Shown here piece by piece: positions 2-7,193 of a DNA stretch of 64,000 bases. How positions within the stretch are numbered: position 1 is the first letter of the stretch; the number at the start of each line of letters is the position of its first letter. This DNA is from an uncultured Chlamydiae bacterium. Lineage in GTDB: Bacteria; Chlamydiota; Chlamydiia; Chlamydiales; Parachlamydiaceae. Position numbers and translations under genes: made by a program. The notes under the pieces are model-generated. The model searched no databases. It was given only the letters and a program-made list of their open reading frames with translations, and had not been told where the DNA came from. The stretch spans positions 672,001 through 736,000 of the forward strand of contig CAVWGN010000001.1 of NCBI GenBank assembly GCA_963754655.1, written 5' to 3'.

Positions 2-3000
2 CAAATTAAACAAAACCGGGTCCAAATACTTGAGACCGCTTTACAATGCTGTCGGCAAAATAAAAAATATAAAGCTGAATATTTGTTACGTACGTTATTT
101 ATCAACATTGTCCGCTTAGATCCCTCTTCATCTTGGGAAGAAATTCTGAAATCGATAGAGTTGGAACAGGGACATTTAGAAACAGTGATTGACTTGAATG
201 ATGTGCCTGGAAGTCAGCAAGAAAAATACGACTGTCATTTAGAAGGTTACCTGGATCTTTTATCCAAATTAGTTGGCTTTCAATTCAATTTTGATGAAAC
301 GCTTAAAAACAAATTTATAGAAACAGCTGATCGTTTAGAACAATTTATTGTCATGGATTTTAAAGATCAGGTCTCCAGTCAAGATCAGTTTTTGATAACA
401 AAAAGTCTGGTATTTCTTTATACCAGGCCTGAGTGGTTGTTTTATAGAAAAAGATTAAAGGCCAAAGCATTTCTAATTGAATTACAATCTAAAGAAAATC
501 ATGAGGCTTGCAAACACAAGATTGAGTTGGAGCTGATTTTGCTACAAGCGGATCAAGCAATCGAAAACCAATATATAATAGATTACCCTAGAACAATCTA
601 TACTACCTTATTAAAAAATATCATTAAAATACTCCCTTCTTGCTCTCCTTCAGAAAAAATAATGGCTCTATCAATTGGAGTAAAGCTTTACGAAGCTCTT
701 GCTAACGACCAAGCAGATCCTAATCCACTGAAAACGAAAATCCTTACTACCCTCAAACAAATCATCAAGATAGGTAATGATCACCTTGAAAAACTAGATT
801 TTAGGGCTTTGCGAGCTCTAGCTCAAAGCCGTTTCACATATGGTTTTTATTTAATGCATTGTTTTCAAACACAAGAAGAATTTAAATTAGGATGCGGAGC
901 TCTCGACATGGTTTCGCAAGACTTTTGGGCTGATATCAACACTCGCCAAGCAGCCATTGAAATTAAAGATATTCATCTTTCAGTCAAGAATAGGGTTGAT
1001 TGCATTAAGCTAGATCAACAAAATTTTTTTCTATTAAAACTCTATAAACTGCTACTTCAGCAAGAATTAGATGAGTTAAAGAAGTGTTTTATTTATTTAG
1101 GATATACAGATAAAACGCAGCGAAAAGTCCCAAATCTGGAAGATGTTATCCATCAAGCGTCTATGTCGCAAAAGAATTTTTCATTATTTTTCTTGCAAAA
1201 TCAATTCAAAGAAGCTGAAAATATTATTTTTACTTATCTTAAGTACTATGATTTAAAAACAGAAAAAATGTTAGAAAGCCCTAATGTTGATAAGGAGATG
1301 CACTTTTATAAAGTTAACTTTAATACAGTTTCAGATGAAGATCCAGGTAAATTCCACACCATTAAGTTGAAAATTTCCCTAGATAAAGAAAAGATTATTA
1401 ATTTTATCTCTAAGTTAAATGATTATCCGTTTGCTGTAAATGAATTTATCGAGCAAAAAGGCCAATTTTGTGACATTGATGAGTCACAGAGTACTCTGAA
1501 TATCCGTGCAGAAGATGGTCAAATCAAGAAAGTACCTTTTTGTAAATCATCTATTGTATTATGCAATAACCTGTACTCTACTGTTCTAAATATACTAGAA
1601 GATTATCAAGGAAATTTAAGCTATACAAAACTAACTAAATATACAATGAATACTTATGGGCATCGCATTTGGACCAGTAACTTATTAAAGGCTGTACTTT
1701 TTCAGCCAGTAGGTTCTCGTCGTGCAGTGCAAAAGATGAAGAACCTTCGCCATGATTGGGTTACTTTACTCGCTGGTTGCCACCTAATCACTGGCTTGTA
1801 TAAATTTATAGATTGCTTGTTGCCAGATGATAACGAAGGCGACTATTATGATGCTCTTGGGAGAAGTGCCTTTAAGGTTGCCAATATGGCCGCAGCGGTA
1901 TGTCAATCGACAAAGTTTGCTTTATTCTGGAATGAAAAATATTGTGAAATTGCTTATAATCAGTATCAGCATTCCTTGGAAAAAAATCTTTCCTCCCAAA
2001 AACAAGCACTTTGGTTTTATTTAAATGGTCTCGCACGCAGGTTGGGATTGACGGATAATGTAGAAGAAATACAAGCACTCGAAGAGATCATTGACTCTTG
2101 TGTGCCCGATACCTATGAAGAGATTGCAAAAATATTAGTTGAAAATCAGAATTTGGATAGTTTTTTATTTATCCTATACACGGCATACATCAAATCCATA
2201 TGCATGCTGAAAAAGCAAAGAGTTGAAGAGGGAATGGCTTTATTCATCAAATTAAGAGATAATCATAGTGAAGTTAAAAAATTTAACGCAAAAAAAACTG
2301 CGACTGTTAGGATTCCCTTGGCATACCAAGAAATCAATTTTGAAAGGGCAATACAGGCACCGGATGGGTTTAATCCTCAAAAAGTAAAAAAAGGGGAAAA
2401 GTTGAATATTCAATTTGACGATAGGTTTAACTCTTCTAAAACTGATGAGGATGATGAATTACAAGAGTCAGACAACTGTATGCTTGCCAACCCATTAGGG
2501 GAAAAGAAAATTATTTTGCAGCAAGCGAATGAAATATTAAACAAATTAAAATTAAAGAAAGAGAAAAAACAAGCAAGAGTGACTTCTTGCACTTCGGTAA
2601 ATTCTTCTTCTTCATACGCTTCTCATTCGACCGGTCATGTTAAGGTAGAGGAAGAGGTTCTTCCTGTTATTAGTGTTAAGAAATACATTAGCAAAAAATG
2701 TATGCAGATCTTCAATTGTTTGTGGGATGAAAATTCTTCATCAAATGTCAACACAGCATGGGAGCTCAGATCTTTTAAAAATAATATCAAAATAACAAGA
2801 GAAGAGGCTCTTAAACTCATTCAAGCATTGGGGGGGATTTATACTCCTTCTAGAGGAGTTGGTAGCCACCATGTTGCCCATTTGCCAAAGATTGAATTTA
2901 ATGGTCAAGATGTGGGAGGGCTAGCAGATTATGAAACTGGTGAATTTATGATCACATTTACGAATGACAAAGAGTTAAAACATTATCAAATTATTCAACT

Positions 3001-3070
3001 ACGTGAAATGTTGATTACACAAGGTTTTAATCCTGATACAGTAGTAGAAAACGTGAAGGATAGTGAGTAA
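2..3070 (+). CDS. Large helical hypothetical protein with C-terminal HicA-like toxin motif; 5' end lies outside the window (paralog of 3798-7193)
   Basis: The frame is open from base 2 (QIKQNRVQILETALQCCRQNKKYKAEYLLRT), matching an internal segment of the paralog, so the start at 83 is not the real start. The C-terminus has ITREEALKLIQALGG...GVGSHH...LKHYQIIQLREML. Confidence 0.85.
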   Translation, partial: QIKQNRVQILETALQCCRQNKKYKAEYLLRTLFINIVRLDPSSSWEEILKSIELEQGHLETVIDLNDVPGSQQEKYDCHLEGYLDLLSKLVGFQFNFDETLKNKFIETADRLEQFIVMDFKDQVSSQDQFLITKSLVFLYTRPEWLFYRKRLKAKAFLIELQSKENHEACKHKIELELILLQADQAIENQYIIDYPRTIYTTLLKNIIKILPSCSPSEKIMALSIGVKLYEALANDQADPNPLKTKILTTLKQIIKIGNDHLEKLDFRALRALAQSRFTYGFYLMHCFQTQEEFKLGCGALDMVSQDFWADINTRQAAIEIKDIHLSVKNRVDCIKLDQQNFFLLKLYKLLLQQELDELKKCFIYLGYTDKTQRKVPNLEDVIHQASMSQKNFSLFFLQNQFKEAENIIFTYLKYYDLKTEKMLESPNVDKEMHFYKVNFNTVSDEDPGKFHTIKLKISLDKEKIINFISKLNDYPFAVNEFIEQKGQFCDIDESQSTLNIRAEDGQIKKVPFCKSSIVLCNNLYSTVLNILEDYQGNLSYTKLTKYTMNTYGHRIWTSNLLKAVLFQPVGSRRAVQKMKNLRHDWVTLLAGCHLITGLYKFIDCLLPDDNEGDYYDALGRSAFKVANMAAAVCQSTKFALFWNEKYCEIAYNQYQHSLEKNLSSQKQALWFYLNGLARRLGLTDNVEEIQALEEIIDSCVPDTYEEIAKILVENQNLDSFLFILYTAYIKSICMLKKQRVEEGMALFIKLRDNHSEVKKFNAKKTATVRIPLAYQEINFERAIQAPDGFNPQKVKKGEKLNIQFDDRFNSSKTDEDDELQESDNCMLANPLGEKKIILQQANEILNKLKLKKEKKQARVTSCTSVNSSSSYASHSTGHVKVEEEVLPVISVKKYISKKCMQIFNCLWDENSSSNVNTAWELRSFKNNIKITREEALKLIQALGGIYTPSRGVGSHHVAHLPKIEFNGQDVGGLADYETGEFMITFTNDKELKHYQIIQLREMLITQGFNPDTVVENVKDSE

Positions 3071-6700: not shown

Positions 6701-7193
6701 AGTGACTTCTTGCACTTCGGTAAATTCTTCTTCATACGCTTCTCATTCGACCGGTCATGTTAAGGTAGAGGAAGAGGTTCTTCCTGTTATTAGTGTTAAG
6801 AAATACATTAGCAAAAAATGTATGCAGATCTTCAATTGTTTGTGGGATGAAAATTCTTCATCAAATGTCAACACAGCATGGGAGCTCAGATCTTTTAAAA
6901 ATAATATCAAAATAACAAGAGAAGAGGCTCTTAAACTCATTCAAGCATTGGGGGGGATTTATACTCCTTCTAGAGGAGTTGGTAGCCACCATGTTGCCCA
7001 TTTGCCAAAAATCGAATTTAATGGTCAAGATATGGGAGGGCTAGCGGATTATGAAACTGGTGAATTTATGATTACATTTACGAATGACAAAGAGTTAAAA
7101 CATTATCAAATTATTCAACTACGTGAGATATTGCTCACACAAGGTTTTAATCCTGATACAGTAGCAGTAAAAAACGTGAAAGATAATGATTAA
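3798..7193 (+). CDS. Large (1131 aa) hypothetical protein with C-terminal HicA-like toxin motif; candidate secreted effector
   Basis: Long ORF with AAGGTGAG ribosome-binding-like site. Paralogous to 2-3070 with the same GSH / LKxYQIxQLRE C-terminal motif. Confidence 0.85.
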   Translation: MIPRVNNQPDTAVTINMSSKAEEIRQTSLHMIFELATELKEETRTKNYETVIHFRLLPVLDFIYSCCNILHSDDNEINAILKNLSLEPSSKMSEEAIKTNSLALNTPHSQIKQSRIQILETALHCCRQNKKYKAEYLLRTLFINIVRLDPSSSWEEILKSIELEQEHLETVIDLADVPGSHQEKYDCHLESYLDVLSKLVGFQFTCDETLQNKFTKTLERLEEFIAKEFKDHVSWQDRLLITKSLVFLYTRPEWLFYRERLRAKELLIKFNSKENPEACKPKIELDLILLQAHQAIENQYIQNYPREIYSTLLKNIIKLLPSCSPSETIMALSIGVKLYEALANDQADPNKVKTKILATLKQIIAIGDANLEKLDFRALRALAHSRFNYGFYLAHCFQTKKELELGCATLNFVSQDFWADIKTRQAAIEIKDIHLSAKNIVDCVKLDRQKFLLIQLYKLLLQQEFYELNDCFRYSMQANKQELKVVGLTSSNLEDFISQEPVSQKNFSLFFLENQFEKAENLLHTYLMFYHLKAKKMLENDYPKSFMRFYDFKADKNTDDKQFFNVTVSLDIEKIINFVSKLNDYPLAVNRFVEKENRLLNDYSQVDISMMIGDSKSNKIPLFKSSTEIFYNIYHTVLNTLKSRQGNLSYTKLTQYTVNAYSHSIWNSDLLKNILSLPSGSRRAKQASKKLRHDWNTLLSCCELAIDKYKFIDCYLPDDHDNFYIPLVENAFDAADIGAVVSKSKEHTLYWNEKYCEIAYNHYQHSLGKNLPSQEQALCFYLYGLARKLGVTDKLEEIQAFEELIDSCVPDTYEEIAEILVENQNVKNSSLVILCIAYIKSICMMKKQRVEEGMNLFIKLRDNYFVVEKVKEKKHTTVMNSMTHEPMICKMELMTSAWFDLQKVKTREEFNFYFDDSSHSSTTAEKDELQESSNCMLANPLVEKKNIVQQAREILKKIKLKKEKKQARVTSCTSVNSSSYASHSTGHVKVEEEVLPVISVKKYISKKCMQIFNCLWDENSSSNVNTAWELRSFKNNIKITREEALKLIQALGGIYTPSRGVGSHHVAHLPKIEFNGQDMGGLADYETGEFMITFTNDKELKHYQIIQLREILLTQGFNPDTVAVKNVKDND

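Follow-up and report, generated by a model that had tools for sequence, protein, structure and literature searches.

The window analysed here is a stretch of 64,000 nucleotides (nt) from an uncultured Chlamydiae bacterium (assembly GCA_963754655.1, contig CAVWGN010000001.1, positions 672,001 to 736,000 of the forward strand), whose genome comprises 3.16 Mb in two contigs. It begins with two long open reading frames (ORFs) at 2..3070 and 3798..7193, both on the plus strand, which encode paralogous proteins of 1131 residues each, here called paralogs B and C. Each protein consists of a long helical body, a flexible tether and a C-terminal module resembling HicA, the toxin of HicAB toxin–antitoxin pairs. 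An earlier note on this DNA had placed both frames at these positions and described them as tandem paralogs of about 1100 residues; the frames are as described, but the copies number three rather than two, with paralog A (P0005, 1128 residues, 69% identical) lying about 2.6 kb upstream of paralog B, outside the window. The features of the array are as follows.

2..3070, plus strand: paralog B (P0004, 1131 residues); 5' end cut by the window, 1022 residues visible
2681..3067, plus strand: C-terminal HicA-like module of paralog B, with G-S-H at 2861-2869
3580..3797, plus strand: AT-rich upstream region and ribosome-binding site; start approximate
3798..7193, plus strand: paralog C (P0001, 1131 residues), a complete ORF in the window
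4134..6395, plus strand: all-alpha solenoid body, residues ~113-866 (~750 residues), from the AlphaFold2 model
5352..5696, plus strand: fast-evolving centre of the body, residues 519-633, from substitution rates between paralogs
6615..6800, plus strand: Lys-rich helix (940-968) and Ser-rich disordered linker (969-1001), from sequence and model
6801..7190, plus strand: C-terminal module, residues 1002-1131 (~130 residues), with G-x-G-S-H at 6975-6989
7632..8786, plus strand: IS481-type transposase, the downstream boundary of the array; context, not a family member

The first 326 nt of the paralog B gene lie upstream of the window. Paralogs B and C are 71% identical (726/1029 residues), and the G+C content along their genes is about 31-36%. 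All three paralogs are preceded by about 200 bp of shared AT-rich sequence with an identical ribosome-binding site, and homology between the copies stops about 35 nt past the stop codon. The conservation of the upstream AT-rich region ahead of all three genes implies that each probably has its own promoter region. Promoter-like matches were not meaningfully above those in shuffled sequence, and a terminator scan was uninformative.

A HicA-like C-terminal module

We judged the module to be HicA-like on three independent lines of evidence: its predicted fold, a profile–profile alignment with a shuffle control and a conserved Gly-Ser-His (G-S-H) motif. A structure model of the module alone (predicted local distance difference test, pLDDT, 82.9; predicted template-modelling score, pTM, 0.78) consists of an N-terminal strand and helix followed by an alpha-beta-beta-beta-alpha core with an inserted hairpin, and this predicted core has the dsRBD-like arrangement (dsRBD, a domain that binds double-stranded RNA) that characterizes HicA. 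A fold search of 48,161 PDB chains returned four HicA structures at the top, with low Z scores of 3.2-3.9; the module shares 29% identity with HicA 5yrz_D over 56 aligned residues. For the profile comparison, genuine HicA domains were taken from matches to the Pfam model in genomes of the same phylum and 20 of them were aligned. Compared by hhalign with this set, 29 family modules gave a probability of 68.5%, an E value of 4.6e-5 and a score of 29.6, in an alignment that spans HicA positions 2-58 of 58 in the right order, places the insert between strands and sets GSH on GSH. Shuffling the columns of the HicA alignment 100 times gave scores of 9.4 +/- 2.0, 16.5 at most, and reversing it gave 9.2.

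The G-S-H motif follows strand 1, as in HicA, and lies at 6981-6989 in paralog C and, as listed, in the equivalent part of paralog B; the C-terminal sequence quoted in the earlier note indeed starts exactly at 6912 (P0001 residue 1039) and at 2792. Among the module relatives, the positions of G-x-G-S-H are near-invariant (G 28/29, G 29/29, S 27/29, H 28/29) though they share only 28-67% identity with the module of the window. In Streptococcus pneumoniae HicA both the RNase activity and the toxicity require the equivalent residue, His36, and the Gly and Ser beside it are conserved, according to the accessible text of the study (PMC6159526). The module also carries additions: an N-terminal strand and helix with a conserved I-F-x-x-L-W, a hairpin inserted ahead of the final core strand, and a Y-Q-x-x-Q-L-R helix specific to the family. 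A HicA subfamily with an 'LKxYQ' helix, to which the earlier note had appealed, was not borne out, since Y-Q occurs at that place in none of the 20 genuine HicA domains aligned. The HicA type closest to the module is 'K-G-S-H-x-K ... E-L-x-K', and the S. pneumoniae helix, in the same accessible text, starts E-L-x-K-Y (PMC6159526). A PHROGs family labelled only 'toxin', phrog_353 (73 positions, HicA identity unconfirmed), matches 11/29 modules with a best E value of 7.6e-4.

Several results weigh against this assignment. The Pfam HicA_toxin model (PF07927, gathering score 27 bits) did not match P0001, P0002 or P0003; a genome-wide search that scored 10 candidates returned nothing even at E ≤ 10, and the model matches only 2/29 relatives, weakly (best E 0.025), whereas BRCT weakly matches 6/29 (best E 0.017). 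A profile of the 29 modules searched against PDB sequences found no HicA, only spurious weak matches. Foldseek returned nothing significant for the module model (best E 1.6 in PDB and 0.63 in BFVD), and in the non-significant BFVD search HicA-labelled phage proteins stood only at ranks 6, 7, 25 and 43. The G-S-H loop is poorly predicted, with pLDDT < 50 in the full-length model, and the window's copies have no P-x-H element, which is seen before helix 2 in most genuine HicA domains.

The likeness could be convergent or spurious and the module a different small alpha/beta domain, BRCT-like for example or new, as the greater number of BRCT matches, the empty Foldseek searches in PDB and BFVD and an hhalign probability of only 68.5% would suggest. 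We regard this as quite improbable, given a profile score about ten standard deviations above the shuffles and an alignment that runs through the whole HicA domain in order with GSH aligned. Taken together, these data make it likely that the module has a HicA-type fold. It is an elaborated HicA-type domain rather than a plain HicA, and it fails formal Pfam family membership. Like the HicA toxins of HicAB pairs (PF07927; PDB 1whz, 4p78, 6g26, 5yrz, 6hpb) it has the predicted core and a G-S-H at the equivalent place; unlike them it is about 130 residues long with extra elements, is fused to about 1000 residues and has no genomic HicB.

Body, relatives and absence of a partner gene

The AlphaFold2 model of P0001, made from a 23-sequence family alignment (pLDDT 74.5, pTM 0.69), has disordered residues 1-16, the all-alpha solenoid interrupted by a small beta insertion at residues ~550-625, and disordered stretches at 866-944 and 968-999 that surround the Lys-rich helix (940-968). 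The model and the sequence place a Lys-rich helix and a Ser-rich stretch ahead of the module, in agreement with the earlier note, and the model supports a large helical body of the TPR-like kind for which the note had suggested modelling. Foldseek matched the solenoid to karyopherins, Ctr9, SKI3 and TPR proteins of IFT-A with E values of ~2e-4 to 1e-3 and template-modelling (TM) scores of only 0.08-0.17, and the predicted body is read as a generic TPR/HEAT-like alpha-solenoid, not as a specific relative of the matched proteins. Scans of the whole protein gave no Pfam or NCBIfam match, leaving the body without any Pfam domain; no nucleoside triphosphatase (NTPase) or other switch domain was found in the Pfam scans, and the body had no SMC or RNase-H-like match by Pfam, model or Foldseek. 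A phmmer search of PDB sequences gave only spurious weak matches, ESM Atlas had no match at or above 0.9 (TPR-labelled clusters appeared at 0.79-0.80), and a protein cluster look-up returned no informative names. All three paralogs begin with a polar, disordered N-terminus; none of them has a strongly hydrophobic segment or a start resembling a signal peptide, and the proteins appear to be soluble and made without one.

Selection differs markedly along the protein. Whole-gene ratios of non-synonymous to synonymous substitution rates (dN/dS) between the three paralogs are 0.5-0.6. Constraint is strongest in the module, which is under purifying selection, with dN/dS 0.10-0.20 from 7-19 synonymous versus 6-11 non-synonymous changes. 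Between paralogs, the linker has dN/dS of at least 1 and the centre of the solenoid has values of 0.95-1.49, which, coming like the others from three sequences only, do not separate positive from relaxed selection there. Residues 953-1001 of paralogs B and C (~6654-6800 versus ~2531-2680) form a tract identical at nucleotide level, with no synonymous change and two non-synonymous changes at its edge, inside genes that are otherwise 72-91% identical; this indicates recent gene conversion between the two copies. The module's low dN/dS, on the other hand, means that gene conversion alone does not account for its similarity, which reflects constraint.

An exhaustive search of 1.84 billion representatives yielded 32 matches at E ≤ 0.001, namely 21 proteins of 963-1372 residues with the C-terminal module, eight shorter proteins or fragments of 82-382 residues and three repeat artefacts. 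P0011 (an adhesin), P0024 (an SNF2 protein) and P0030 were dropped as relatives, their scores being summed from repeats and their matches lacking the motif. The C-terminal module seen in the window is thus more than a chance occurrence, being shared by 21 further large proteins in the same position. None of the 28 real relatives has a Pfam family. In a word-indexed homolog search nothing came up beyond the three paralogs and one relative, and the 23-sequence profile added none; a search for related loci with P0003 gave one genome locus, and a metagenome scan with the family alignment found no locus.

When the full-length protein was searched for in 73 genomes of the same taxonomic family, six carried it, including this one, and it was found in 0/3 other species of the genus. 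A module-profile search of 401 genomes of the phylum recovered the window's own genome only, which understates the range, since the full-length search found five more genomes among its 73. The family is a rare one restricted to chlamydia-like bacteria. Multiple copies recur elsewhere: one genome (G403) has three in tandem, another (G404) two, and a third (G407), where the gene is duplicated, has three loci, one of which is split. In a quick tree, with support from the Shimodaira–Hasegawa-like approximate likelihood-ratio test (SH-aLRT) only, copies group by genome with support 100, in keeping with either lineage-specific expansion or concerted evolution. The split G407 member (L057, G407:C2:190838-194130) lies in consecutive frames of 709 and 469 residues and may be a frameshifted or decaying copy. 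Adjoining a distant family member in G419 (L059:2254-6132) is a 1292-residue protein with two trypsin-like protease domains, a NACHT NTPase and a ubiquitin-like domain.

No HicB-like ORF lies beside either 3' end, in agreement with the earlier note. The 727-bp spacer at 3071-3797 holds only ORFs of up to 47 residues, none HicB-like, and after 7193 there are only repeat-derived ORFs of up to 75 residues and the IS481-type transposase, again with nothing HicB-like. Both HicB Pfam models (PF15919 and PF05534) stayed below the cut-off genome-wide. In six genomes including this one, neither a HicB nor any conserved small gene adjoins the family members, and the neighbours vary by genome and are housekeeping genes (phosphoketolase, acetate kinase, pseudouridine synthase, dxr, rpsL, mutS, lipB, gidA). 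A type II HicAB module, in which a small toxin gene forms an operon with hicB, is thus not what is found here: the protein has 1131 residues. PADLOC-DB 2.0 returned no family at E ≤ 0.1 for P0001, P0003, P0006 or P0016.

Genuine HicA domains also end other large chlamydial proteins. A Pfam-positive HicA occurs in 36/150 genomes of the phylum, and 14 of the 62 HicA matches listed fall within open frames 623-843 residues long, from 10 genomes. We examined eight of these large frames (L035-L042, from G044, G123, G144, G113, G099, G064, G117 and G101). In seven, HicA forms the last 50-60 residues of a Pfam-blank helical protein of 678-815 residues with a low-complexity tether; in the eighth it is internal, behind an Rce1-like CAAX protease membrane domain. 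The 678-815-residue proteins (L035-L041) resemble the window's family in phylum and layout: their N-terminus is disordered, their helical body is long, their low-complexity tether is rich in Lys, Ser and Pro, and HicA comes last. They differ in that their HicA passes the Pfam cut-off and has no insert and in that none is present in this genome; their bodies have no similarity to the window's family detectable by phmmer or full-length hhalign.

Possible functions

The reading we favour, though we would give it slightly less than an even chance, is that these proteins make up an effector family directed at the host, whose HicA-type end acts as an RNase or binds RNA. The conserved dsRBD-fold end would bind RNA and probably cleave it via His1064, the alpha-solenoid would select the partner, place or time of its action, and the flexible Lys/Ser-rich tether would join the two. 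The proteins would be exported through the bacterial type III system into a eukaryotic host, and it is because they are proposed to act there that no antitoxin would be needed. The genome is that of an amoeba-associated, intracellular-type bacterium with one SctV/FHIPEP export gate. Export to the host is favoured because of this type III gate, the polar disordered N-terminus, the absence of an inhibitor gene, the housekeeping neighbours and the absence of a defence-model match; the status of a type III secreted effector is circumstantial, suggested by the SctV gene and by the sequence and predicted disorder of the N-terminus. The patchy distribution and the clustering of paralogs genome by genome, in triplicate here and in G403, look like effector traits, and the unrelated large proteins of other chlamydial genomes that end in a Pfam-positive HicA (7/8 large frames) point the same way.

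Against host export stand three considerations. A defence protein would account equally well for the patchy occurrence, the tandem expansion and the joining of a diversifying, sensor-like region to a constant effector end; insertion sequence (IS) elements flank the array; and a cytoplasmic RNase lacking an inhibitor is a problem that the effector reading solves only by assumption. The proteins might accordingly be single-chain toxin-sensors that act inside the bacterium, with the solenoid serving as a cis-acting antitoxin in the manner of CapRel and the RNase being released when the variable centre meets a phage or plasmid protein or a stress signal. The constancy of the module (dN/dS 0.1-0.2) beside a variable centre (~1-1.5) fits such a sensor-effector, as do the lack of a separate antitoxin gene in the genome and the patchy, lineage-specific tandem copies in an IS-flanked array, and this logic has been proposed for monocistronic fused HicA classes 11-14 in the accessible text of Gerdes 2024 (PMC10865869). 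We nevertheless consider this rather unlikely, since no PADLOC family was found for 4/4 members tested, no NTPase or other switch domain was found, the neighbours in six genomes are housekeeping genes and not defence islands, and the published fused classes, as far as that text describes them, are much smaller (340-440 residues) or SMC-based (PMC10865869). CapRel-type fused toxin-antitoxins, an analogy discussed there for fused HicA, likewise place on one chain a toxin that is held off by its own other domain; their toxin fold is another one and the proteins are far smaller, and autoinhibition in the window's family is only hypothetical.

Less probable still, in our estimate, is that the HicA-derived or dsRBD-like module binds RNA or protein and does not cleave, making the proteins scaffolds or regulators. 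Folds of the dsRBD type are primarily binding domains, a harmless domain would most simply explain the missing inhibitor gene, the module carries additions peculiar to this family and lacks the P-x-H of typical HicA, and the HicA of Waddlia is non-toxic in Escherichia coli according to the part of the Waddlia toxin-antitoxin paper that was available, which covers the canonical hicAB pair only. What argues against a non-cleaving module is that Gly-x-Gly-Ser-His is almost invariant across such divergent relatives and that exactly this His is the one tied to catalysis in the available account of S. pneumoniae HicA (His36, PMC6159526).

Returning to the host-directed effector, a fuller and more tentative proposal, possible though we would wager against it, is that amoeba-associated chlamydiae domesticated a HicA RNase and made it the constant warhead of effectors that they inject. 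The diversifying solenoid would aim it at host RNAs or ribonucleoproteins, the antitoxin would be dispensable because the target or activating context exists only in the host, and the arrangement would have arisen more than once in the phylum; repeated origin is proposed because the unrelated 678-815-residue proteins also end in HicA.

Fused HicA domains as such are already known, and the earlier note's proposal, in which a large protein has taken over a toxin from a toxin-antitoxin pair, stands as regards the HicA-like end and is not new in itself, fused and polymorphic HicA having been published. Gerdes 2024 (mBio, PMC10865869) distinguishes, in its accessible text, 14 HicA contexts including the monocistronic fused classes 11-14; that main text names no chlamydiae, and its Table S1 has one chlamydial entry, a 61-residue class 3 HicA. 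The window's family resembles classes 13 and 14 as described there in being monocistronic, with a helical N-terminal part, a C-terminal HicA and no separate antitoxin. It differs from class 13, which has 340-440 residues and a HicB/RNase-H-like N-terminal part, and from class 14, which has an SMC coiled coil (PMC10865869), in its 750-residue Pfam-blank solenoid and non-canonical HicA-like module, and so belongs to neither.

A second precedent, in the part of PMC9424270 that was accessible, is the HicA found at the C-terminus of S8-type (S8-PTS) polymorphic toxins and of one RHS toxin, where, as may be the case here, it is the C-terminal working end of a large protein acting outside its producer. 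Those HicA tips are described as about 50% identical to ordinary HicAs and as lying behind known trafficking domains, and the systems have immunity genes and swappable tips (PMC9424270). The window's family, by contrast, has a constant tip, a varying body and no immunity gene; with no Pfam domain in its body, its tip the most conserved part and no conserved downstream gene, it does not look like a polymorphic toxin. A literature search, with most subscription journals outside its reach, found nothing on large HicA-ended chlamydial proteins. The family thus stands out by its divergence, its size, its lineage-specific tandem expansion and its lack of an antidote gene.

Work on HicA has so far treated it as a small toxin held in check by HicB, and its fused forms have been catalogued by bioinformatics only. 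Here a HicA-type module that is invisible to Pfam, NCBIfam and PADLOC is the best-conserved part of large, expanding proteins of intracellular bacteria, stands without an antidote gene and is paired with a fast-evolving body, while bona fide HicA caps other large proteins in about 1/15 of the chlamydial genomes sampled. Should the module prove to be an active RNase delivered to the host, the family would establish a new class among chlamydial effectors and clearly exemplify the reuse of a toxin-antitoxin part for manipulating the host. Should its site of action be the bacterial cell, the protein would instead represent a single-chain toxin-sensor of very large size, in a phylum where few defence systems are known.

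Mobile elements and other genes of the window

Paralog A is split from paralog B by an IS607-like element (L046:14119-16265, contig C1) that encodes a serine recombinase with a MerR-type helix-turn-helix and a 515-residue TnpB/Cas12f-like protein. Downstream of paralog C, a repeated element encoding the same short peptides in opposite orientation occupies window positions 7277-7598 and 9625-9893, flanking the IS481-type transposase and its trailing small ORFs, and it recurs upstream of paralog A (L046 ~9930-10400). It may represent the terminal inverted repeats of an IS or a dispersed repeat resembling repetitive extragenic palindromes (REP) or miniature inverted-repeat transposable elements (MITE). 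A small ORF upstream of paralog A derives from a repeat and has no relation to the small ORF next to the array in G403.

Elsewhere in the window, two paralogous proteins of about 636 residues with nine DUF4116 repeats each are encoded on the minus strand at 50594-52504 and 54790-56703. Between mfd and alaS, at 16458-17759 on the minus strand, lies the gene for a 433-residue protein with OGFr_N, the N-terminal domain of the opioid growth factor receptor and a eukaryote-type domain. Finally, two divergent ORFs of exactly 516 residues each, at 30049-31599 (minus strand) and 31931-33481 (plus strand), and a 1277-residue ORF at 33478-37311 (minus strand) are without a Pfam family at E ≤ 1e-5.

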